A stretch of DNA of 61,380 bases, the filler included, from Dirinaria sp. TL-2023a (lineage: Eukaryota), in the NCBI GenBank assembly GCA_051941275.1. It is 6 parts of 6 records of this genome, joined end to end, with 100 filler letters (N's around TTAATTAATTAA, not from the genome) between each part and the next. Parts side by side here need not be neighbours in the genome. Positions count along the whole stretch, not along the records: positions 20,543 to 30,706 come from JAVEBF010000972.1; 5 more parts are not named here. One strand, given 5' to 3'. Under the pieces are notes generated by a model. That model did not search any database. It was not told the origin of the DNA and worked only from the letters and a program-made list of their open reading frames with translations. Positions 20,443 to 39,425 of the stretch are shown here, one piece after another (the stretch's first letter is position 1; each line of letters starts with the position of its first letter). The translations under genes and the position numbers were made by a program.

Positions 20443-20542
20443 NNNNNNNNNNNNNNNNNNNNNNNNNNNNNNNNNNNNNNNNNNNNTTAATTAATTAANN
20501 NNNNNNNNNNNNNNNNNNNNNNNNNNNNNNNNNNNNNNNNNN
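20443..20542. other. Artificial contig linker
   Basis: 44N-TTAATTAATTAA-44N. Confidence 0.99.
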
Positions 20543-20714
20543 GTTATCACAAATTGGGGTTGTGGTGAAGATCCTATTTTTTTGCATAGGGAGTGGCTCA
20601 GACGAATACGCTAGATATTCAGGTGTGGAGTGCGAAGCGCTTTCAGACCGTGACTCGGCTGGCAGGAAATGTACAGGGCTTTCTGCTTTGGATTTTTTTT
20701 TCTTTCTTGGATAC

Positions 20715-22239
20715 TCATCTTATCGTGTTCTCCTCGACCTCAACATCAACTTCCAGCCCTACCGGCACCTTATCCTCACGCGGCCTCTCCTCTGACACAG
20801 GAGGATTGTAGCCAAATACCCCCATGCCTAGCATGGAACCGGCCTCTCCCATCTGCGATAGACTCTTCCTCTGCGGTGCGGGATCGCTTCGAACATTCGA
20901 ATATAGCAAGTAGCCTCCTACAGCTGCTGCCATCGACCCGAGCGCCAGCACTGATGGAATGATGATGGATGAGAGCGAGGATGTTCCGGCAGAGGTTGAT
21001 GTGTACGCGTGGGTATCGGCAGAGTCGATGAGTATGTCATCTCTGCCAAGATGATCGGCGAAAGGTAGAGAGTTGACCATGCCTGCCAAAAAAGTAGACC
21101 CCGCATCTCGTGGCCCCCTTTCGGCTGGTTTCCCCCATGGAAGTTTCTTGCTGTTTTGCCATTCTTCGGCCTTGGGGTCATCGACCAGAGTCTCACCGTC
21201 TGAGCCGATCAATGCGTGATCAACTTGTACCGGCCCGCCAAAGAAGTCTTTCGAAAGCCGCTTAACATACAAACACAATCCAGGATATCTCGCCATCATG
21301 GTCTCAGCCAACCATTTGTGGGGTACCGGCGGGACCAGCATCAAAGCCAGGTACGATAGAGCCACGCAATCCAAGCTCGACAATGTGTCCTCGGATAACA
21401 TATACCGCTTGTCACCAAGCATTTCCTGCAACGGTTCGAAAAACGCATCAGCCAATGCATCGAGCCTGAATCTCGCCGCGTGTTGCTGCTTCTCAATCGC
21501 ACCAGTGATCGTCTGCTTCGGAACCCGTAGTGATTGGGGTATATTATCCGATGCAGAGCGTAGGGCAGGATTTTGAGGCTCGTCAGTCACCGCATCGAGG
21601 TCAAGGGCCGAAAAGCCGAGATACTCGGTTCGCGCTTTCGCACTTGCACGTTTTTGCGGTGAAATGAACCATTGGGCTGGCCATTGCAGAAGACAGGACA
21701 AGGCGGGACGAGTAGTTGTCGTGTAGTTCTCACTTGAGACGTACAGACTAAGGTCTAGGAGGGGTTGGCCGTGGGCTTCGACGAAGGCGGAGAAGCTGAG
21801 TGGGGATTAGTAATTGCTCTGACTGAGACATTTGCCGAAAGGATGGAAGTGCGTACGCTGTAATGTCCGCCTTGTCTGTAGCCGAGAAGTTATTCGAATC
21901 GAGGTCCCAATGACGGTCTGGCGTCTCACTCAGGTGTTTGACTATGTTCCGAAAACCTCCTATCCATTTCGAGCCATCCCGAAGTGCGGGCAACGCCTCT
22001 GATGGGGTAGAGATATATCAGCCATTGACATAAAAACCGTGCGCCCTTGTTTCAACAGCGTGGTGTGACAGTGAAGAACCAGGCGTACCTGTTGGACTGA
22101 GAGAGTCATCGTTGCTCGCTATCAATACCCAACTATCGCGGGGTACGACTTGTCTCAGATATACGATAGCTGCCAGGCACTGGGGTTCAATGGAAGGAAG
22201 CGAAAACGCAGGACCCCAGATATGAAGCTCTAGGACCAT
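20715..22239 (-). CDS. SAM37: Mitochondrial SAM complex subunit Sam37/Tom37 (metaxin family), 3 exons
   Basis: MVLELHIWGPAFSLPSIEPQCLAAIVYL, LPALRDG...IGGF, GST-C-like SSLDCVALSYLAL and a C-terminal hydrophobic anchor. Confidence 0.88.
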
Positions 22240-23389
22240 GATCCTCTCGATCCTTCCGCGGTCGGGCCTGTTCTCACACCAAGCAACATGAAAACCACAG
22301 GACGAGGAGACGCGTGATTGGCGACTCCATCCGAGTGTCGTGAACAGAGAACAGGAAACGGGATGAAGTTGAGCAGGTGAAACTGTTCGATATTGGCCAT
22401 CGCTGATCCAACCCTTGCCAAGACTTTAGGGCTGCAGCGCCGATCACTTAATTCACCTTACCCTAAACCGCTACCTTGGTCTGGTTTGCTTTGCCTCGCT
22501 CAACATGGAAAATCATAAGGTAGCTTCCGGCTGGAATTGAGGCCGCTGTCATTATTGGTCACTGCCATGTTCCTTCAACCATGTTCAAAGGCGATTGAAG
22601 GTTTGTAAGTGTTCGCTGTTTCAATCAGCAATCATCTCACGATTCACTACGGTAATTCAGAACAGCATGCTGAGAAATACGGGCTGTTAGGAGATAAGGC
22701 AACATGTATTGTTTTCATTGTAGCCGCTCTATAAATAGTTATGAATCCTATGTACTTTGAATACTCAATGAGCCTCTCGCCTGTCCAAAACGCCTGTCTC
22801 CTCTATGGTTCTACCTGCCAGCAGCGGACAAGCTTGTGCGCCGCCCCAAGAACCGCATTTAGACACAGTCGGACCGAATGCGAGAGCATTTTCTATGCTT
22901 ACGCCCTGTGGAGGCGACTCGTGATTTGTTCCCTCTCAGCGGTTGTATGGGTATGCGTAACCGAACCAGCGTGGAAGTAGGTGGTGTTTAGCTAGATGTA
23001 GGATAATCAAAAACGGCCAATGGTGAAAGAGTGAAACGACTCGTGGCTGGCTGGGAGAGCCCGACACGCGAGGGAGGGTATAGGCACGCTGTTATACTTT
23101 GTTTTTGGCCTACGGCAGATGCTCCCAGCCTCGTTTGTAGGGTCTGGGCCATGGGTCGAGTGCGGTAAACGGTAGGAGCCCTCAAGGCTCATCATGTATT
23201 CGCCGCTGTCCAGCAGCTAGCGATGATGCGAGATTGCAGCGTCCTTCGAATATAGGGCAATGCCGCCGTCGTGGTAATGGCGAGGGGAAGTTGCTGAAAA
23301 GGTCCCTGATAATAGTGTGTCTCACAGGATATGTCCAAGCCGCCGAGAATAGGCCAAGAAAGTCTGTTCTGAAGTTGCCAAGAGATGGC

Positions 23390-23488
23390 CTATTTGAACT
23401 TGGGGATTTGTGGCAGAGGTCGGTTTGGCGGTGGTCCTGGGCATGGAGGATATTGTGGTCGAGAGGGTCCGCGGTATTGAGTAGGCAT
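23390..23488 (-). CDS. Putative 32-aa proline-rich microprotein MPTQYRGPSRPQYPPCPGPPPNRPLPQIPKFK
   Basis: Hand-translated. Start context TCTCACA-ATG, no upstream ATG on this strand from 23489 to 23995, pyrimidine-rich leader, and an RPLPQIP (RxLPxxP) motif. Confidence 0.6.
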   Translation of the reverse strand: MPTQYRGPSRPQYPPCPGPPPNRPLPQIPKFK

Positions 23489-26400
23489 TGTGAGATGAGA
23501 TGAAATTTTATGACAGGACTGTATTTGTAAGGAAGACTTTGAGGGAGTAACGTCTGGATGGGATATTCTGAGTAACGGAGTAGTCAGAAGAAGCTTCTAG
23601 GAAGATGTTCGCAGGCAGAGGTTGTTGATTGAATGTCTTTGTGAGTAGTGCTCGCTGATGAAAGTGATGGTGAACAAAAGAGAGAGGAGGTGAGAAGTAT
23701 TTATGATCGAAGCCGGCCAGCGCTTTTGGATTACTCAAGCGGCGCCAAAGAAAGTGCCGTACGCAACCGTGGTAATTGGACTAGGCAACTGAATGTGAAG
23801 TTACTCAGGGAGTAGTAAATGAGCAGATTGACAGGGGTGGCAGCCCCAGTTCGAGTTCGGATGGGCAGGAGAACGCTAGGGAGAAGTTGCGGTGACGCGT
23901 TGGGGCAAGGGGTGAAATTATGCAAACAGGGCTGAAGCAGGGAGAGAAGATGGTGTGCGGATTGACAATTGCGACAACAGCGACAGCTTTGGGCACATGA
24001 TCCGGAAGCCATCTTTTGGGGCAGTTGGGAATTTTGGCCCGGAGGAGGTTTGAATTGGGATGTTGCTCATCCCTGTACTAATCATCGAATTACGATCCTT
24101 TTCCAGGAACGCTTCTTCGCAAGTGGCGGCTAGCGGGAAGACTCAATGACTTCAGCTGCTGTTTGATGTTGATTTCCTGGAGCAGCGGTGCGGAAGGATT
24201 GGCCTGTAAGAGACATCCCGAGTCATGGAGAGACCTGAAAGCTGGCCGTCATTCCGTCTTTGGCGTGCAACAATTCGAATGGCATTGGCAGCCTGTGGAG
24301 CGACCTGTGGCTGTCACCCATCAAGATTGAACCCCTCGGTGAGTCGGTCACCTCCTCGCCGGACTATCGGACTTACAGCATTATCTTAGAGTACCGCTAC
24401 ACGCACACCATCATTTGACGCTTCGTATTATTTTGTGGCAAGCGTAAGGTAGTTTGTAACCACACGATAATATTAATGGTAGGTAGCATTATTAGCATGT
24501 AACTTACCAACTCATTCTTAGCCGATCGCAAGTGCTATCCAACTGTGCATTTTATTACTCCCACTGTACACCGTAGACGGAGTTTTCTCCCCCCCGGGCA
24601 GTTTGATTTTCCAACAGAGTTTATCCAAACATAGGTGAAACCAAGATCTTCGCGCGTCAAATTTGAGCAAACACCTCGGTATCCCATATCCGAGAGCAGG
24701 CATATCATTGGTCTCCGAGAATGGCATTCACTTCGGCGCCACCGGCCCTCTCACAAGGCGATATCATCATGACATGCCTCTGCGGGCTTCTTGTGACGGC
24801 CGTAATTCGAGCAACATGCATTCCTAAGTTCTAAGCAAGACCCGTTGCCGATGGCTTCGTGCTGGACCAGTTCTACGATGACCCCGGGGGCTGGACCCCA
24901 AGCTTCCATCTAACACTTTTTATTAACATTATTACCGTTACTATTGCACTCGAATCGTTCAAGCCTCGATGGCCCCCATGAGTGAAGAACATGCTTTGTC
25001 CCAAAATGGCAGGCTTTGAGATGACGGACGGTGGCGAGAAGAATTTAGTGTGACTGGCTTGACTGGTGAAATGATTAATGGTGTGGCGGCTCGAGCGAAA
25101 ATCCACCGAAGCGTGCACCATCGCCTGCAGGGGGGGAAAGGGGGAGGAAAGCATGGTGTCCACGTGGTGGATATGTAGCTAACACTGATCCTTGTACATT
25201 GAAGGAACGGAAGATCGCAATCCTCCTAATCAAATGCTCCCGTTGTTGGTTCCATTCGATACCTTAGTAAGGTAACGTCGTTATACAGTAGGGTAGATGT
25301 ATGAACAGTTGGGGATTTCCCTTTGCTACCAAGTCGTCATGAACAATAACATGGACATCCAATTCCACGCTCACATCAGCCCACCATCCTGCACATTGTT
25401 CGCGATCCCGCACCTGTTTCAATTGAGCTGTTGTATGTTATCTCACTTCGGTCAACCAACAGGTCAGGGAGTAACCTTGACAAGGCCTCCCAAGCCCGAG
25501 TCCTTTCCGGTGTGCTTCTTACAAGGGCCAACCGTCTTCTGTTCCCCCTTTCCCTACAGGTCTGCTTACAGTACCTTCAGCTTTGACTGCAGCAGGAGGA
25601 GAAGCCACAGCTACGGACATGAGCGATTGGGCAGTAAGGTACAGTAACAGCAGTAGAGTAAGGTAGCTTAGGTGAAGTAAGTAGGTTAAGGTAAGGTAAG
25701 CAGAGGGTCTACCTTCACTACTTTACTTGACTTGCCGGGCTTCCCGCATCAAGTACCTTAGGTACCTTAGGTATGTTTAACCGTCTTCATCTGGGCAAGC
25801 TGCATGCCTGCATGTCATTAGCTTTTTACCCCAACTTCCACGTTACCCAAAATGTCGGGACTCACGCCCCACGGCCGCAGATGCAGGAAGCCTAAGCGAG
25901 AGGCCAGTGCATGAGGCATCCCGGCGCCTCGATCTTCTTTTTCCAGATAACACGAAGAAGAGAGTCAGATGTGGCGTCGCTCATTTCCGGCCTGTCGCAA
26001 AAAATAGATCGGGGGAAATCATTGTGCGGGAGGAAGAGGTTCAGCTCGAAGGCAAAATCTGACTGTGAGCCCCGGCAATATATCTGAATACAGTGCTATC
26101 CGTCCAAGGCAACAAAGGAACGACTGGTCGCAACCGAGTTGAGGGTCTCCGTGGCTAGCTGACCGGCCGGGTACTACATACCTGTACTGACAATTGGGGT
26201 GTGCGACGGTGGTAGTAGCCAAGGTATGCTAACGATTGCCAACGAGTGAAAGTGCAGCCAGCACCCAAAGCCTAACGAGATCACGATTTGATAATACGAC
26301 CGTTTGACTTCATCCCAAGCAGAACTTACGCGGACATTTGCGGAACAGCTTCCTCCGACCTCCTTGTTCCCTCCATACCGTACTACTCCCTGCCTTGCTT

Positions 26401-26843
26401 TTCCTCCGAGTAAGTCTTCCAAGGTAGAGCATCTGTGGGTTTACCAATCGCTGCGGGTCTCCATGCTTCATAAGCATTCTTCGCATACGAATACCGTGAT
26501 GGTGTTTCAGGTGCGGGTAAGACTGTACAATTCAAGAGCAAACTCGGTCCTCTGCAGTAGAGGCGTGGGATGCGAAGGTTTAAGGGAATGCGCTTGTGAA
26601 AAGAGAACGCCGAACTTGTGGGACTGCATCTCGACTTGGTGAACACCTCACGAGCAACTTGACTCAGCAATGTCAGAGCGCAGAGGAAGACTTTCAAACA
26701 GCGTACCTTACATCGCAAGTGCTAGAGAAACACTCTAATGCACGACCCTGTCCCAACGACAGGTACTCGTACCTGAGGCCCATCTTCGATCGCGCTTCAT
26801 CGGCGATGCCACATGTTCCTTACAACCTGTTCGCAATCCTGCC

Positions 26844-27752
26844 TCAATCCTCCAAGATCTGCCCCTCTCCAGCTTGTGTGGATGCAATCCATTCCTCCAT
26901 CATGGCTGGCCCTGCATTTCCGGCCAAATCCTTGCCGCGTGCAGCTCCCCGCCGCTTAACAACCAGGCAAAGTATTCGGCCGTATATTGTAAAGCCATCA
27001 TACATGGTCTCCAATGCTAATTTTTTCTTCTCCTCGTCGCCGTCCTCTCGGCGAGCTGGTGTAGGCTCCGCTTTGACCTCGTGTACTGGTATATTCGCCC
27101 CAGACCGTAGTCCCTCATCGTCGGATCCCTCCGATACGAACAACGGATCCTCTTGTTCCCTTTGTGAGCCTGTTGAGGCATTTTCTGTTGGTCCATCCCG
27201 TGCGACAGGGATATCTGCCAGAGGAGGGTTTACTCCTTCTTCGCTCTGTTCTCTAATCATGGGCCAGTCTACATCATCACCAACCTCTACAGGCACATCC
27301 CTTGTCCCATAGCCAGCCAGTCTACCCTTTGTGGTGCCCAGTCTCGGCTTCTCGCTCTTCGCCCGCTTGTCTTTCTTGAGGATTGCATGCCTCGAACTTG
27401 TCTCCGTCAAGAATACCGCCACATCAAAATCGTCTGCCCAAATCCACGATCAGCTACAGAGTCGCCCTTCCCTAGTGTACTGTATGCCACGCGGCCTCTA
27501 CTTGGTTGACGTACCTTTGACAACGACGTCTTTCCAACCTTTCTTCTTGCCACTTTTCCCGGATTTCGCCCGCGCATTCTCTTCGCGTAACTTAGGCAGG
27601 ACCAGCGGCCGCACAGCTTCAATGATACGCGGCAAAACAGGGTCTCGTGTGTTCAATAGCCATCGTTGGGTATCGGCGGGATTATCGAGGTAGATGCGAC
27701 ATTCAAGCACAGAATATTTGGTGATGCGAAGATATCGGCGTAGCGGAGGCAT
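26844..27752 (-). CDS. Conserved fungal hypothetical protein, 2 exons
   Basis: MPPLRRYLRITKYSVLECRIYLDNP...VRPLVLPKLREE, a GT-AG intron (about 27514-27435), then DDFDVAVFLTETSSRHAILKK...YDGFTIYGRILCLVVKRR...MMEEWIASTQ. Confidence 0.85.
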
Positions 27753-28180
27753 GGTAGATCCAAAGTGCGGGGATGGAACCTTGGACACGGCGTGCCAGTG
27801 TTGCTGGTTTGCGGGCTTGCTACGCGACAGGAATGAATCCCCAGAATAGCATATCTTGAGGTCATCAGGCCGTCAAGTGGCCTTCTATTCCATATTGGAA
27901 TGACCTCCGCTACTTTCGACCGAGTCTAGGTAGTCCTGCTTGCGCCTCAAGGAGTGCGGAGTTGCTGTTCACACATTGAGAGCTGTGAGAGCGCGTTTCA
28001 CGAAAGTCCCATCGGCGACTATCACTTTAGCCTTTCAAAGGCCTTGGCGGGACTGCCGTAGCGTCTATCTAAAGTAAGGTACGAGCACGAGTACCTTTAG
28101 AATCTTCCCTTCGTCTACAACATGCATTAATCTAATGCCAGCCACCATGTAGAGTGCAGGCTCCAGCAATCGGTAAGCCC

Positions 28181-30706
28181 ATGCGGGCAGCATCAGGACC
28201 GTTGAGGGCAGTCATTCAAACTGATCCAACTCTGCTTCCTGCCCAGCACACACAGGACTTGGCCATTCCCGTGGATTACCAACTCACCGTGTCCACTAAC
28301 AGAAAGTCTCTTTATCTGGGATGGTAATGGCGCCAACGACACATACTCCTCGGAATCCAGGGGCATTATTGCCGCCAGGAAAGCCGCAAACGGTCTGTTA
28401 GCTGTCGCCGACTCTCAGGTCGTTATCCTTTATGATACTAAGCAGGCAACACAGAAAAGCTATAGAGTCAAAGGCGCCGACGTGCGTACATCAGGACTCA
28501 TCTGGCGAAGTAAATGTGGTAATCTGCATGCGTAACGTCAAATCGGCCTACTACAATACAGCCATGATTCGATGAATTTTTTTTTTTCACCTCCACCCTC
28601 CAGCATACCGTGCAATTGTATTCTCTAAAGCATGCTAAATTATTGGATGCATTCAGCACGCATCCACCACCGTCTGACGTGTTCGTTGTCTCTGCTACTT
28701 CACATTTACTGCTTCCCGCATCCATCTCGCCCCCGACGATATTATTGTCAAGCCTAGTACAAAAGACACCCCCAATTCTGCTCCACCCGCAGTGCTCATC
28801 ATCGGCTGTCGTAATAGCGAGTTTCCATTCAGAGCGAGTATATCTCTTCTTCCTTGCCTTTGTCGATAGCGTATCGGCTGTATATGATGCTTCTGGTTTC
28901 TTTTAGGATGGAGCAAGAGGGACCCGTAAATCTGGACCAGCAAGTTTGGGCTTGCGTGTATTCGGAAATTTCACGCTTTAGGGACATATGGGCCGAACAG
29001 CAGCAGTGAATTCGATCTGCAGACATATCGTGTGCATGGTCTGAATGCAAACACGGCCCCTAATCGGTCGAGGAATCACTGGAGCCGCATTTGTACCTGG
29101 CCACCAAGCAACTGTCATGAGCATCGGTGCTGACGGGAGATGTTGTGTACTTTCTTTCCAACCATTGACTGATCGGTCTATGAGCCTGAATGGAAGCAGC
29201 AACATAACTTCTATGAGGAAGTGGCATCTGCATGGAGCAGCAACGCGCTTGTCGATAACCTCCTTCAGCGCAAGAAACGTACCTTCCATCTCTGATCATA
29301 GTCCATCTCGTCACGAAAACTTCCCAGGTCCCCCTAATATCGCTGCTGTTGGCTGTCACGATGGTCATGTCCTGCTTTATCGTCTTGACGGTACTTTGAT
29401 TGAATGGAGATCGTTCGACGCTGATCGCTATGTAGCGGCGGGTGTCCGATGGACACATGGCAAGTATACGTCTACTCAGAGTAGAAGGAGTAGACCTCAA
29501 CCAAGTCCACGTTCAAAGTGAAAGAGCTTAGGGTTGGTGTTTGCAGCAGGTTGCCAGATAAGAACTGAGGTATGGCGGTAATTGACGTCCAAGAAGAGGC
29601 CGCATCAGTCCCGATCCCACAGACTCCTAAGCATGTTCAGCCATATGACAATCCAAGGTCAAAGCCAAGGCAGTCCACATCTGCCGTCTATCACTTGGAC
29701 ATCGAATCTCAAACGAAGCTATCCAGCTCACGGACCGTCAGCGAGGATACAGGATACCAGACAGCCACAGAACACCTGAGTGGTTCGGGCAGTTCTGATG
29801 GTACAACTAGACTTACAGAAAAGTCAGACGAGGCTAAGGCAACAAGAATGAATGGTGGCCCCAACGAGCGTCCCTCTTCCGATACAATCATCAAAACAGC
29901 TCCTTATCCATATATTCCACCCCGACCTACGATGTCCAGGCCGGGCGGCCTTCTGTCACGTCGTCGAGCCCAGACTTCTCAAAGCCGCATGGCTGCTGAT
30001 AACGAACGCTCGTCGCAATTGAAGACTCAATTCATGCCAGTGCCGAACATGAAGAACAGTGCCATAACCGAGCACCTCAGTAATGTGCAGAGGCCAAGCA
30101 CACATGATACTTTTGTGTCGACTTCAGAAGCGACGCCATTAGAGTGGATCGACCTTGAACCCGATTCTCCAGAAGCAAACGCTCCGCCTTCTGCCAACAA
30201 CAAGGCTCGTGCACGAAAGTCTGCGTTATTGCCACCAACTCGGCAGTCGGAAGCCTCCCACGATACCGTTGTCGACTGGTCCAATTCTACAACCACCGAT
30301 CCCGTACCTACGATGACTCTTTCTCCAGCTCCGGTAGAGCAGCACCAACCGACTCCGCTACCCCTGAAACGGTCGTTCGCGCACAAACCGAGGAAGCCAC
30401 CACCTGCGTCATTGAATTTGGAACAATCAGCCAAGTCTGACGACACAATCGTGGAGTGGGGGCCAAGTCTGAAGAAATCGCCAAGGTTGTTCGACATTCA
30501 TAAAGACCTAGTTCATCCGAGCGCCGTCGCTGGACAGGGCGGAGCCGAGCAAACCCCTCCACCACCTGTTATACCAGCCACCGGCAGCGCGTCTCGCAAA
30601 CTGCCTCCAACCCCCCTTTCTGAGGCAACGCGCAACCGTTCACAGGCCATGTATACCGTCTCACCATCGAAATCGTTCCCCTCATCCCCTCCGTCCGGAC
30701 CGCCTC
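28181..30706 (+). pseudogene. Disabled WD40-repeat gene with a long Ser/Pro-rich tail; 3'-truncated by the contig end
   Basis: WD-like segments (SLFIWDG...GIIAARKAANGLLAVADSQVVILYD; FHSERVYLFFLAFVDSVSAVYDA; ITGAAFVPGHQATVMSIGADGRCC) are split by frameshifts (about 28303, 28580, 28955) and in-frame stops (28904-28906, 29519-29521). The apparent intron 28482-28535 ends in AA. Confidence 0.7.
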
Positions 30707-36794: not shown

Positions 36795-37838
36795 GGAAAA
36801 AGCCAATCGTCGCCGAAGGAATCGAAGGAGGCACCAGAGAAACGTCGGCCGATGTCCCAGGGGTACGCGGGGACACAGGAGGGCGCATGACGAAGCACTT
36901 CAACTTCGGCCACCGGCCGCTTTCACCTCCTGCTTTACATTACAGTACTGTACTACCTGGGACCTAAGGTACCTAGCACCTCCTACCTGAGGTACCTTAT
37001 GTAGTACCTACCTTGCTGCTGCTGACCACCGCGGCAACAACAGCAGCGACTCATGCTATCTGTCTCCTCCACGAGTCATCGGTAATCCGAGTTGACGACT
37101 TTGACGACTTGATGGTAATGCGTGACAAGCAGCAGAATGCCGACTTTTGGTTCAGCAAGGCGGAAATTGGGTGTAAAGTATCATCTCGATCAGCCAGCCC
37201 ATGGAATCCCTTCGGAGAGATGTACGTAAGCGAAAGCATGAGCTCCTTCTGTACCTTACGATGCAGCTCGGCTTCGATGACCAGTGGACTGGAGCAGTGG
37301 ACTGGGAGTCCGGTTTCGAGTGCATTCCAGAGGTAAGGAATGATGGCGGCGGGTCAACCACCGCCCTCCTTCTGTATAAGTCTACTGTGACCCGAGAGAA
37401 TGTTAAAGGCCTGGGCCTCTTGAGGTATCTTGTTCAAGTACCTACTTACCTTACCTTATCCTTGAAAAGTCCCGAAATACTAGTGCTGTACCCCGCCTGG
37501 TTCTTTGTTCCTGTGCAGCGATCATCATTATTAATATTGATGCCCGGTGTTGTTCCTTTGTTCTTGGGACACCGAGTGGAACCTCGAGCCCTCACACTAA
37601 ACTCGAAACGAAATACGACGACAGTGCACCCCTGTTTTAGCGGGGGTGTTGTTTGACGCGGGCTGTCCCTTTAATCTGGAAAAGGGCTTCCCGCACCCAC
37701 ATACACCAGTGGCCCTACTACCTTACCCTACTTTTCTTTCAGGGGTGACGGGACTGACGGTGGAGCTTGACGCGCCAATACTCGTACCCACCCAATTTCA
37801 ACACTTTGGTATCACACTCGCTTAACATTCATCATTTG

Positions 37839-37885
37839 CCTTCTTCTTCTTCTTCTTCTTCTTCCTCTTCCTCTTCCTCTTCCTC
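37839..37885. repeat. (TCT)n/(TCCTCT)n microsatellite in the pyrimidine-rich leader of the CAP gene
   Basis: Read directly: cttcttcttcttcttcttcttcttcctcttcctcttcctcttcctc. Confidence 0.85.
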
Positions 37886-38263
37886 TTTTCCTCCTTTTCT
37901 TCCTTTTCTTCTACACCGACTCCTCACCTACAACCTACACACTCACCCACATTCTTTTCTACCCAAGAACATAATCTTCTGTTCATCCACTGCCTATCCG
38001 GCGACAATTCACTCATTCAACAGTGTGTACAAACCTTCCATTCTTTCTTTCACCAACCCACTCGATTCGCCAGTCGAACCGCTTTCAAGCCCAATTGGTT
38101 TCAGTCCGGTCCACCAGTCAATCCCATTTAACCGCCTCGACTCGAAACAATCGACAACACGACATTCATCTCCCTCCAATTCAGACCTCGGTGATCTGTG
38201 ATCCCCCCCTCAAGACTCCCATCAGCAAACGTATCCCAGTCTTCCTCAACTCCAGTCATCACC

Positions 38264-39425
38264 ATGCGTACCGCAGCAGTGGCTTTCCTCTTCGCCGCCG
38301 GCGTGTTGGCAACTCCGGTCCTCGATCGTCGCGTCGTGGTCACCGACGAAGTCGTCGTGACTGTTATTGACTATGTGACCGCCGGTGCGAAGCCTTCAGC
38401 CCCTGCCGTGCCCAAGGTCTCTGGCTACCACAATCCTCATGGTCATTACCACCCTTACAAGGCCCAGTCTCCTCCTGAGGCTGCCCCGGCCCCGGCCGCC
38501 AGCCCGAAGCCCTACGTTGCTCCGGCTGCTCCAGCTGCTCCGGCCCCAAAGCCGGAGGCTCCAAAGGCTGCCCCTCCGGCACCCAAGAAATCATCGACCG
38601 CCGTGGCTGCTGTTCAGCCGACCAAGCCAGCACCATCTCCTCAGACCACCGCTGCTCCCAAGGAGGCTGCAGCTCCCGCGACTGGTAGCTCCAACCTTCC
38701 TACTACCTACGTTCCTAACCTGGACTCTTCGAGCGACATCTACTCCGGGCTGGCCGTGGAACACCACAATGTTCATCGTAAGAATGCGAGTGTTCCCAAT
38801 CTAACTTGGAACAACACTTTGGCCGGCTATGCCAAGCAAACCGCTCAGACCTGCGTTTGGGGCCACAGCTTGTAAGTCATCGCGCCATTCTCTATCCTTA
38901 TCAAACATTAACATCAGTTAGGGCTCCCGGTGGAGGAGGATATGGCCAGAACATCGCCGCCGGCGTCCCGGCTGGTAACATCTCCGCCATCGTTTCCAAT
39001 ATGTGGTACAACGGCGAGGAGCCACTGTACCCAACCCCGTATGGCAACAACCACCCTGATATGACCAACTTCGAGAAGTGGGGTCACTACTCACAGCTGG
39101 TCTGGGCCAAATCCGAATCAGTTGGATGCTACACCCAAACTTGCTCTCCTCCTGGCCAGGACCCCCTGAAATGCAAGCCTGACGGAACCTCGTACCTTAG
39201 CAATAGCAAATGTGGCAACGGTATCAACTCGCCAGTCGGCATTCCCGCCATTTTCACCGTTTGCAATTACTACCCACCTGGTAAGTCACCGAAGCTTCAA
39301 TGGTACGGCTCTGTTCAGTACTGACAACGTCACAAGGCAACTATGCCGGCGAGTACGCCCAAGTCAAGCAGCCCGGCTCCATGGCTACAGTGGAGATGTG
39401 CGAGGACGGCGTGAAAGGCCTGTAA
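38264..39425 (+). CDS. Secreted CAP/SCP (PRY/PR-1-like) protein, 3 exons
   Basis: Signal peptide, Pro/Ala/Lys-rich linker, HHNVHRKNASVPNLTWNNTLA, CVWGHS, YGQNIAAG, MWYNGEE, GHYSQLVW, VGC and FTVCNYYPP|GNYAGEY. Introns about 38872-38920 and 39281-39336. Confidence 0.94.

Follow-up and report, generated by a model that had tools for sequence, protein, structure and literature searches.

A conserved micro-ORF upstream of SAM37 in Dirinaria as a highly probable gene for a proline-rich peptide with a putative SH3-docking motif

Class-I SH3 ligands follow the consensus +xФPxФP, and both the Src-type RPLPPLP and the proline motif of Pbs2 that is bound by the SH3 domain of Sho1 in yeast belong to this class. 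Among very short open reading frames (ORFs), the conserved-peptide upstream ORFs (uORFs) include the fungal arginine attenuator peptide (arg-2/CPA1) and the polyamine-sensing upstream conserved coding region of AZIN1, and short fungal precursor genes are known for CAAX lipopeptide pheromones and for MSDIN-type ribosomally synthesized and post-translationally modified peptides (RiPPs). In humans, SH3 proteins were reportedly pulled down by, and bound on peptide arrays to, young microproteins that carry proline-rich motifs (PMC10032668). Here, we analyzed a window of 61,380 nucleotides (nt), filler included, that joins six parts of the genome assembly of Dirinaria sp. TL-2023a (GCA_051941275.1), and followed up an earlier note according to which the minus strand of 23390-23488 hides a proline-rich microprotein gene with an SH3-ligand motif. 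This 32-codon frame, hereafter the micro-ORF, lies upstream of SAM37; it is conserved in related fungi, is under purifying selection at the protein level, is preceded by a conserved promoter and leader and lies in a region that a relative transcribes. We consider it very probably a real protein-coding micro-gene, and it represents a new family of microproteins encoded by small ORFs (smORFs), which are themselves a known kind.

The micro-ORF and the two motifs of its product are located as follows.

23390-23488, minus strand: coding sequence of the micro-ORF, 32 codons plus a TAG stop (23390-23392), from its translation and the boundaries kept in relatives
23426-23458, minus strand: core PQYPPCPGPPP, codons 11-21, with the PPP run and the single Cys; invariant in 15 of 15 haplotypes, in which it served as the search pattern
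23402-23422, minus strand: RPLPQIP, codons 23-29, a match to the class-I SH3-ligand consensus outside the search pattern

The minus strand of 23390-23488 translates into exactly the peptide that had been claimed, MPTQYRGPSRPQYPPCPGPPPNRPLPQIPKFK, followed by a stop, and the start lies in the context ctcacaATGc, in agreement with the TCACA-ATG context reported earlier. By single-genome features alone, namely its size, the ATG-free run before it and its motif, the micro-ORF is not beyond chance. The whole window holds 389 ORFs of at least 32 amino acids (aa), 63 ATG-initiated ORFs of at least 30 aa overlap 21000-28500, and RxLPxxP occurs in 4 of the 418 ORFs of at least 30 aa in the window. The proline fraction of the micro-ORF (0.375) is the highest among these 418, with the runner-up at 0.25, and the strand is C-rich around it. 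Since such features are unremarkable on their own, it is the comparative data that identify the micro-ORF as a real gene.

Relatives were sought at both the protein and the DNA level. A phmmer search with the 32-aa peptide against 1.84 billion representative proteins (E<=0.001) returned two matches, P0003 and P0004, at 76-79% identity. P0003 (202 aa) carries the motif at its C-terminal end (...MLTHYHGPSQPQYPPCPGPPPDRPLPQLPK) and P0004 (168 aa) at its N-terminus (MDPINWNAPSRPQYPPCPGPPPNRPLPQLPQ...); both have the same core with a Met 7-8 residues ahead of it, and their flanks show no kinship with each other or with the window. Residues 1-40 of P0004, used as a query, retrieved P0004 itself only, and residues 29-68 of the window's 68-aa open frame shared words with no protein of 30-119 aa in a collection of 5.8 billion clusters. 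At the DNA level, the core PQYPPCPGPPP was back-translated into a degenerate pattern, with which metagenome contigs were scanned; the pattern fixes 11 codons only and leaves the surrounding frame architecture free to vary. It identified 28 fungal metagenome loci (L001-L028), whose hosts are related fungi, probably lichen-forming.

In all 28 loci, a frame of fewer than 100 codons keeps its start and its stop, so that the absence of a conserved ORF in related genomes, which the earlier note had considered fatal to the claim, was not observed. The ATG stands 10 codons ahead of the core in 25 loci and 12 codons ahead in the other 3, which share a two-codon insertion. Counted from the start of the core, the stop lies at +20 codons in 21 loci, at +21 in 3 and at +22 in 4, with TAA and TAG used by 14 loci each; the encoded peptides are 30-33 aa long. 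With the window included, the set comprises 23 different sequences over -330 to +370 and 15 different ORF haplotypes. Nine assemblies contain two or three different micro-gene haplotypes, and one ORF haplotype recurs in 10 assemblies, which looks like several fungi per metagenome, not paralogues. As a control, the same pattern was run against 596 Gb of prokaryote genomes and gave one match (L029), which was rejected as a chance match: it is antisense to a 563-aa gene, and the pattern frame contains no ORF of at least 20 aa starting with ATG, GTG or TTG. The use of a SAM37 exon as a synteny anchor in the metagenome contigs gave 94 pattern matches, 0 of which were confirmed.

Selection was assessed by the pooled Nei-Gojobori method on the 15 haplotypes, over 22 aligned codon columns, namely those after the Met and outside the search pattern. 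In these columns, pS is 0.63, pN is 0.16 and dN/dS is 0.13. Within the core, pS is 0.64 and pN is 0; therefore, the core is not simply conserved DNA, and its third positions vary freely. Variable sites at codon positions 1, 2 and 3 number 10, 8 and 29 of 33 (Fisher p=8e-9), the minimum nucleotide changes at these positions are 10, 8 and 54, and the minimum state changes amount to 72 for codons versus 20 for amino acids. In a six-frame control over one 28-codon block of the 15 haplotypes, the sense frame alone was open in 15/15, with a pN/pS of 0.16. The antisense frame with coinciding third positions had a pN/pS of 0.22, yet it contained stops in 15/15, and the remaining frames gave values of 1.3-5.4. 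The purifying selection is thus frame-specific.

The conservation forms an island. We compared the window by blastn with 15 of the 28 loci, which represent the 14 non-window ORF haplotypes (L017 repeats that of L001). In 12/12 distant loci, the sole match between the flanking genes is the ORF, from 23488-23495 to 23380-23412, at 69-81% identity, and the SAM37 coding DNA of those loci is 58-62% identical. In the closest loci (L009, L014 and L023), the leader aligns too, up to 23937-23971 and at 65%, and the sequence after the stop is unaligned. The peptides are 73-91% identical to that of the window, and the SAM37 proteins 38-69%.

Across the 15 haplotypes, the invariant residues are M1, P2, Y5, P11-P21 (including Y13 and C16), R23, P24, L25, P26 and P29. 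Variation is restricted at three further sites, to Q, K or P at 27, to I or V at 28 and to K or R at 30. RPLP[QKP][IV]P thus matches the class-I SH3-ligand consensus in 15/15 haplotypes, with the contact positions fixed and the non-contact position 27 free. P0003 and P0004, which were found by phmmer without the pattern, also have an intact core and carry RPLPQLP. All 15 peptides are devoid of acidic residues and of hydrophobic segments, with a pI of 9.2-10.4 and 34-43% proline, and by our reading of these composition values they would carry neither a signal peptide nor a membrane anchor. AlphaFold2, run on the alignment, modeled the peptide as extended and lacking secondary structure (pLDDT 78, pTM 0.19). 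The product is therefore a basic, proline-rich and unfolded peptide of 30-33 residues. The way in which the residues are conserved agrees with a putative role in SH3 docking, as a decoy or adaptor.

No described family accounts for this peptide. None of the 15 members matched a Pfam family at E<=10, the best match in a profile search of the PDB had E=2.8, and the ESM Atlas returned no usable match. The motif strings occurred in 0 of the papers searched, and no description was found in the searches on SH3 microproteins, fungal smORFs and eIF5A/polyproline uORFs.

The sequence upstream of the start contains the following features.

23489-23995, minus strand: pyrimidine-rich leader and core promoter, ATG-free over 507 nt, from base counts
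23697-23705, minus strand: TATA-like element CATAAATAC, 217 nt upstream of the ATG
23891-23917, minus strand: upstream promoter element tttcacc...acgcgtcacc, which resembles the TTTCACCGCCTG.TCGCTGGGCGCGTCA block of other lineages, as judged by eye

The earlier note described a pyrimidine-rich leader with no upstream ATG for about 507 bp, and both points were confirmed: 23489-23995 is ATG-free, with the nearest upstream minus-strand ATG at 23998, and its composition (C175 T147 A114 G71) is 63.5% pyrimidine and 14% G. The run ranks third on the minus strand (600, 593, 510). It is unusual for its surroundings, as 5000 local dinucleotide shuffles contained a mean of 4.6 ATGs, with P(0)=0.0044. 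The start context is conserved, with A at -3 and C at +4 (ATGC) in 29/29 sequences. Of 11 lineage representatives, 9 carry the CATAAATAC 9-mer between -207 and -284, and a TATA-like match is present in 12 of the 15 haplotypes. Farther upstream, GCCCTGAAT occurs in 8 of 11 lineage representatives, and a block of ~45 nt located ~450 nt upstream of the ATG is 82-83% identical between L007/L012 and L008.

In fungi, the start site of transcription lies a few tens of nt beyond the TATA element. In the 12 TATA-bearing haplotypes, ATGs crowd just upstream of the TATA-like element, and none, bar in-frame ones, occurs from ~45 nt past it to the start of the micro-ORF. In-frame ATGs lie 7 codons upstream in L007 and L026, and 6 codons upstream in L004 and L008, both of which lack a TATA-like match; they would just prepend MPPTPST-, MPSTPST- or MLAQST-. 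The clearing of ATGs past the TATA-like element is the pattern expected of a real 5′ untranslated region (UTR) in which the AUG of the micro-ORF would come first.

The longest ATG-free run in the window, of 724 nt, is found elsewhere, on the plus strand at 37540-38264, and a CAP/PR-1 family gene (38195-39321, plus strand) begins where it ends. The leader of the micro-ORF had been likened to that of this "CAP gene", a name that here denotes the cysteine-rich secretory family, not cyclase-associated protein; the likeness holds in one respect, namely that the CAP/PR-1 gene also follows a long ATG-free run.

Transcription was assessed with three RNA runs from one sample labelled lichen metagenome, which were the only public runs with part of 22300-25300. 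Their contigs, which are unstranded, were aligned to 20500-28000 at an identity of at least 90%, and they delimit one block around the micro-ORF.

22703-24015, strand not shown: unspliced transcribed block containing the micro-ORF, from RNA contigs with no joint inside

Because the contigs are 90-98% identical to the window, they derive from a relative, in which this region is transcribed, as seen in unstranded contigs of one sample. The contigs also cover SAM37 at 20695-22352. In all three runs, cover is zero over ~24016-25996, which argues against DNA carry-over, and it resumes at 25997-26972. The gap in RNA cover at 22352-22703 provides no evidence for two separate transcripts, since contigs break for other reasons. 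Among the 12 of 22 indels and the 40 of 187 differences listed for the relative's contigs, none falls inside 23390-23488, and indels of 1-2 nt are found downstream of the micro-ORF, at 23172, 23295 and 23304. No long ORF is present in any frame of this transcript.

The upstream part of the block shows an uneven divergence. In the relative's contigs, 23653-24015 differs from the window by ~4-5 substitutions per 363 nt (~1%), compared with 50 in 644 nt (7.8%) over 23009-23652 and 5.7% in the SAM37 coding sequence; against more distant loci, 23653-24015 is only ~65% identical, despite the ~1% divergence in the near relative. A Cys-rich ORF of 93 aa on the minus strand at 23731-24012 (MASGSCAQSCRCCRNC...) lies in this conserved upstream zone, with its start at the very end of the longest contig. 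We rejected it as a real gene, because its 111-aa stop-to-stop frame had no tblastn match in the 28 loci (E<=1e-5), and it is probably not coding.

The downstream neighbor is included for context only.

20715-22239, minus strand: SAM37/Tom37 gene, from Tom37 and GST_C_6 matches
21796-21856 and 22000-22089, minus strand: GT..AG introns of SAM37, from RNA joints

SAM37 is the downstream neighbor, and shares the strand of the micro-ORF, in 21 of the 28 loci. The seven loci with no SAM37 match comprise four on short contigs as well as L008, L012 and L013, which retain ~3 kb of downstream sequence. In 22/22 sequences, the window included, a spacer of 923-1949 nt with 13-35 ATGs separates the micro-ORF from SAM37, so that reinitiation at SAM37 is implausible. 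ORFs of 100-175 aa occur in this spacer in some lineages and were rejected as candidates, as they are not conserved between lineage groups; no open frame of the spacer is. The homology of L012 and L013 to L007 begins far upstream and is collinear until it breaks off ~760 nt beyond the stop. In L007, SAM37 follows ~800 nt beyond this point, and in L012 and L013 it is absent from the remaining 2.2 kb. Therefore, the unit of promoter, ORF and ~0.7 kb tail persists where SAM37 is not adjacent. In addition, no RNA contig bridges the micro-ORF block and the SAM37 block.

These data argue against two other explanations under which the earlier note would have withdrawn its claim. A uORF would share the leader of SAM37 and have a main start within reach; given the long, ATG-rich spacer, the TATA-like promoter of the micro-ORF itself and the break in synteny, a uORF of SAM37 is not plausible. 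A fragment of a longer coding sequence is contradicted by the missing splice donor, since the GT at the ORF end is absent in 5 of the 15 haplotypes, and by the lack of any RNA joint. The kept start and stop in 28/28 loci and the dN/dS of 0.13 outside the core are the checks that had been proposed, and together with the conserved promoter and leader and the transcription in a relative they strongly support the view of a microprotein gene missed by gene callers.

The micro-ORF had further been called apparently the only gene in a 4.6-kb interval. This stands for protein-coding genes: of 26 stop-to-stop frames in 22738-27449, none had a Pfam match at the reporting threshold (E<=1) other than a single sub-threshold one (E 0.2, 12 bits vs a cut-off of 25), and no second conserved ORF was found in the interval around the micro-ORF. 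Rfam likewise gave no match at threshold over 22200-26900, with a sub-threshold microRNA match elsewhere at 23.5 bits vs 77.2. It does not stand for transcripts, as that of the upstream gene extends to ~25997; because 25997-26972 is transcribed and spliced with the upstream gene, the empty part is ~24016-25996.

Several further observations concern this upstream region. The transcript of the upstream minus-strand gene, whose ORF ends at 26844, runs ~850 nt beyond its stop. A minus-strand GT..AG intron at 26630-26706 lies within 25997-26972, past that stop, and an alternative joint drops 60 nt (26645-26704); 25997-26972 is either a spliced 3′UTR or an additional small gene. The segment 25772-26021 is 65-71% conserved in L009, L014 and L023. 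At 26489-26524, one contig in each of the three runs matches these 36 nt alone and has long unrelated flanks, which suggests either a chimeric contig or a short segment that is repeated or shared. Finally, an island of ~80 nt at 24607-24685, ~1.1-1.2 kb upstream of the ATG of the micro-ORF, is 79-81% identical in L009, L014 and L023, where the sequence around it is ~65% identical or unalignable. This island, a possible distal regulatory element, falls where RNA cover is zero and matches no Rfam family, and no counterpart was found in more distant lineages.

Overall, after weighing these data, we provide a putative mechanism for the micro-gene. The conserved TATA-type promoter would drive an unspliced mRNA with an AUG-free, pyrimidine-rich leader of ~170-240 nt, and the micro-ORF would hold the first AUG reached by the scanning ribosome, in a context that is strong owing to the A at -3. 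Support for translation is indirect and comes from this A and from the position of the AUG as the first after the TATA-like element. Once freed, the peptide would present short linear motifs to partners in trans: the invariant RPLPxФP would dock on at least one SH3 domain as a class-I ligand, the invariant PQYPPCPGPPP core would prolong the polyproline-II surface, and the peptide would compete with, or bridge, the usual proline-motif partners of the SH3 protein. In this scheme, we infer the strand of the RNA, its translation, the action in trans and SH3 as the class of partner. Taken as a whole, the mechanism of a free-standing gene whose peptide docks in trans on SH3 domains is quite possible, and we put it forward tentatively as the best of the explanations considered.

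A number of findings speak against this proposal. The contigs do not give the strand of the RNA over the micro-ORF. One contig reaches 24015, beyond the predicted TATA element, and spans the ATGs at 24012 (the 93-aa ORF) and 23998 (a 26-aa ORF), so that the micro-ORF would not hold the first AUG on such a molecule. The transcript continues for ~690 nt after the stop of the micro-ORF, and a long tail after the stop usually invites nonsense-mediated decay. The 34 large frames of the window yielded no SH3 domain. PPP and PGP runs are classic eIF5A-dependent ribosome-stalling sequences, which fit a role in cis equally well, and a peptide acting in trans does not account for the linkage to SAM37 in 21/28 loci. 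The frame of P0004 continues for 137 residues beyond the motif, so the length of the ORF is not universal. Lastly, the sampling is narrow, in that all 28 loci come from one assembly series and 10 of them carry one common ORF haplotype, and the invariance of the core across these loci is imposed by the search pattern.

The explanation that survives best after SH3 docking is a real trans-acting peptide with another partner, be it a WW, GYF or EVH1 domain or profilin, or one that acts through its invariant Cys or its two Tyr residues by modification or a disulfide. The longest invariant stretch is indeed PQYPPCPGPPP and not the SH3 motif; Y5, Y13 and C16 do not vary, P0003 and P0004 keep the core intact, and AlphaFold2 predicts an extended polyproline chain with no fold. 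However, the class-I SH3 motif is the best-defined consensus match in the peptide, with invariant contacts and a free position 27. The canonical motifs of the other domains are PPxY for WW, PPG followed by a hydrophobic residue for GYF and FPPPP for EVH1, and these are absent from the aligned peptides. We regard a non-SH3 partner as unlikely.

A role in cis ranks lower still. Here, the nascent PPCPGPPP chain would stall ribosomes when eIF5A or polyamines are low and would thereby control its own RNA or SAM37, the latter through a long isoform or read-through transcription, in the manner of a conserved-peptide uORF. The invariant PPP and PGP runs suit this idea, as does the position of the ORF upstream of SAM37 on the same strand in 21/28 loci, even where SAM37 is only 38-47% identical. 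The contig depths of the two RNA blocks are similar, although depth cannot rank genes. In addition, polyproline stalling relieved by eIF5A has reportedly been linked to a mitochondrial import gene, TIM50 (PMC11551009). Against it, the spacer of 923-1949 nt with its 13-35 ATGs makes reinitiation implausible, no RNA contig joins the two blocks, and the micro-ORF has its own conserved TATA-type promoter. L012 and L013 keep the ORF, the promoter and a ~760-nt tail with no SAM37 in the 3 kb downstream, and no other conserved ORF lies downstream. Moreover, the conservation extends beyond the PPP run to the SH3-type motif, which a PPP stall would not need. Control in cis, whether of its own RNA or of SAM37, thus appears distinctly unlikely.

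It is very improbable that the conservation serves the nucleic acid itself, as in an enhancer or a structured piece of a long noncoding RNA, and that the frame is open only incidentally. In favor of this reading, long ORFs are absent from the transcript, and a C-rich surrounding strand keeps frames open by chance. Nevertheless, changes concentrate at third codon positions, pN/pS is low in this frame only, ATG and stop are kept in 28/28 loci though the stop alternates between TAA and TAG, conservation ceases within ~10 nt of the ATG and of the stop, and no Rfam match lies at the site. A long noncoding RNA should hold no ORF under coding constraint; here the micro-ORF is constrained, and it is the only conserved ORF of the transcript. 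Equally improbable is a first exon of a longer spliced gene or a functionless chance ORF: ORFs of this size are abundant in the window, and the two motif-bearing database proteins are 168 and 202 aa long, but RNA contigs pass through with no joint, the GT is not conserved, the downstream sequence is unconserved even in the closest relatives and bears the 1-2 nt indels at 23172, 23295 and 23304, the flanks of P0003 and P0004 are unrelated, as expected of ORF callers extending through open frames, and chance is excluded by the kept start and stop, the dN/dS and the six-frame control.

Returning to the SH3-docking peptide, a further step would be to see in it a dedicated, separately regulated gene whose product, an SH3-docking motif fused to a polyproline core, serves as an endogenous competitive regulator of an SH3 node and has been kept under strong purifying selection in lineages whose SAM37 protein has diverged to ~40% identity. 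We hold this to be possible but rather doubtful. Such a node would belong to polarity, endocytosis or osmostress, for example a contact of the Sho1-Pbs2 type. To our knowledge, no stand-alone "motif-only" regulator gene is known in fungi, and none was found in the literature searched. Conserved genes of ~30 codons are almost never annotated in fungi, and at its true length this one is invisible to protein databases, with two matches per 1.84 billion entries, both of them longer proteins. The microprotein is better conserved than the adjacent housekeeping gene SAM37, which makes it a clean case of a possible motif-only microprotein; the partner hypothesis is clear (SH3), and the key residues are obvious (R23, P26, P29 and C16). 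A simple screen can recover such genes from raw sequence, namely one for a first AUG after a long, AUG-free and pyrimidine-rich leader, followed by cross-species codon patterns.

Among known systems, conserved-peptide uORFs resemble the micro-ORF in their ~25-35 codons, in the conservation of the peptide, in the gene downstream on the same strand and in a stall-prone sequence. The micro-ORF differs from them in the 0.9-1.9 kb spacer with 13-35 ATGs, in its own TATA-type promoter and in its persistence where SAM37 is not adjacent, and its C-terminal residues and stop context vary. With the precursors of pheromones and RiPPs it shares the format of a stand-alone gene of 20-35 codons overlooked by annotation pipelines. 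Unlike pheromone precursors, the microprotein has no C-terminal CAAX, as its Cys is central (16 of 30-33) and its C-termini are K, R, KFK or KS. Unlike RiPP precursors, it has no hypervariable core joined to a conserved leader and follower. The flanks of the micro-gene contain no Pfam domain and no processing enzyme. The micro-gene occurs as a single copy, in synteny with a housekeeping gene, and neither the CAAX nor the leader, core and follower layout with nearby enzymes was found.

Closer likenesses are found among SH3 ligands. Like the human SH3-binding microproteins, the micro-gene product is very short and disordered, with a proline-rich SH3-docking motif as its likely activity. The human examples are, according to the report cited above, young products of uORFs or overlapping ORFs of known mRNAs that were tested on peptide arrays (PMC10032668). 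The fungal micro-gene, in contrast, is under strong purifying selection across lineages in which SAM37 is only 38-69% identical and has its own promoter, and its SH3 binding is putative. Like the class-I SH3 ligands, it presents an RPLPx[I/V]P that fits +xФPxФP with invariant contact positions; homology in sequence to one of these ligands was neither found nor tested for. The known class-I ligands are segments of large proteins, whereas here the motif and the polyproline core make up nearly the entire product.

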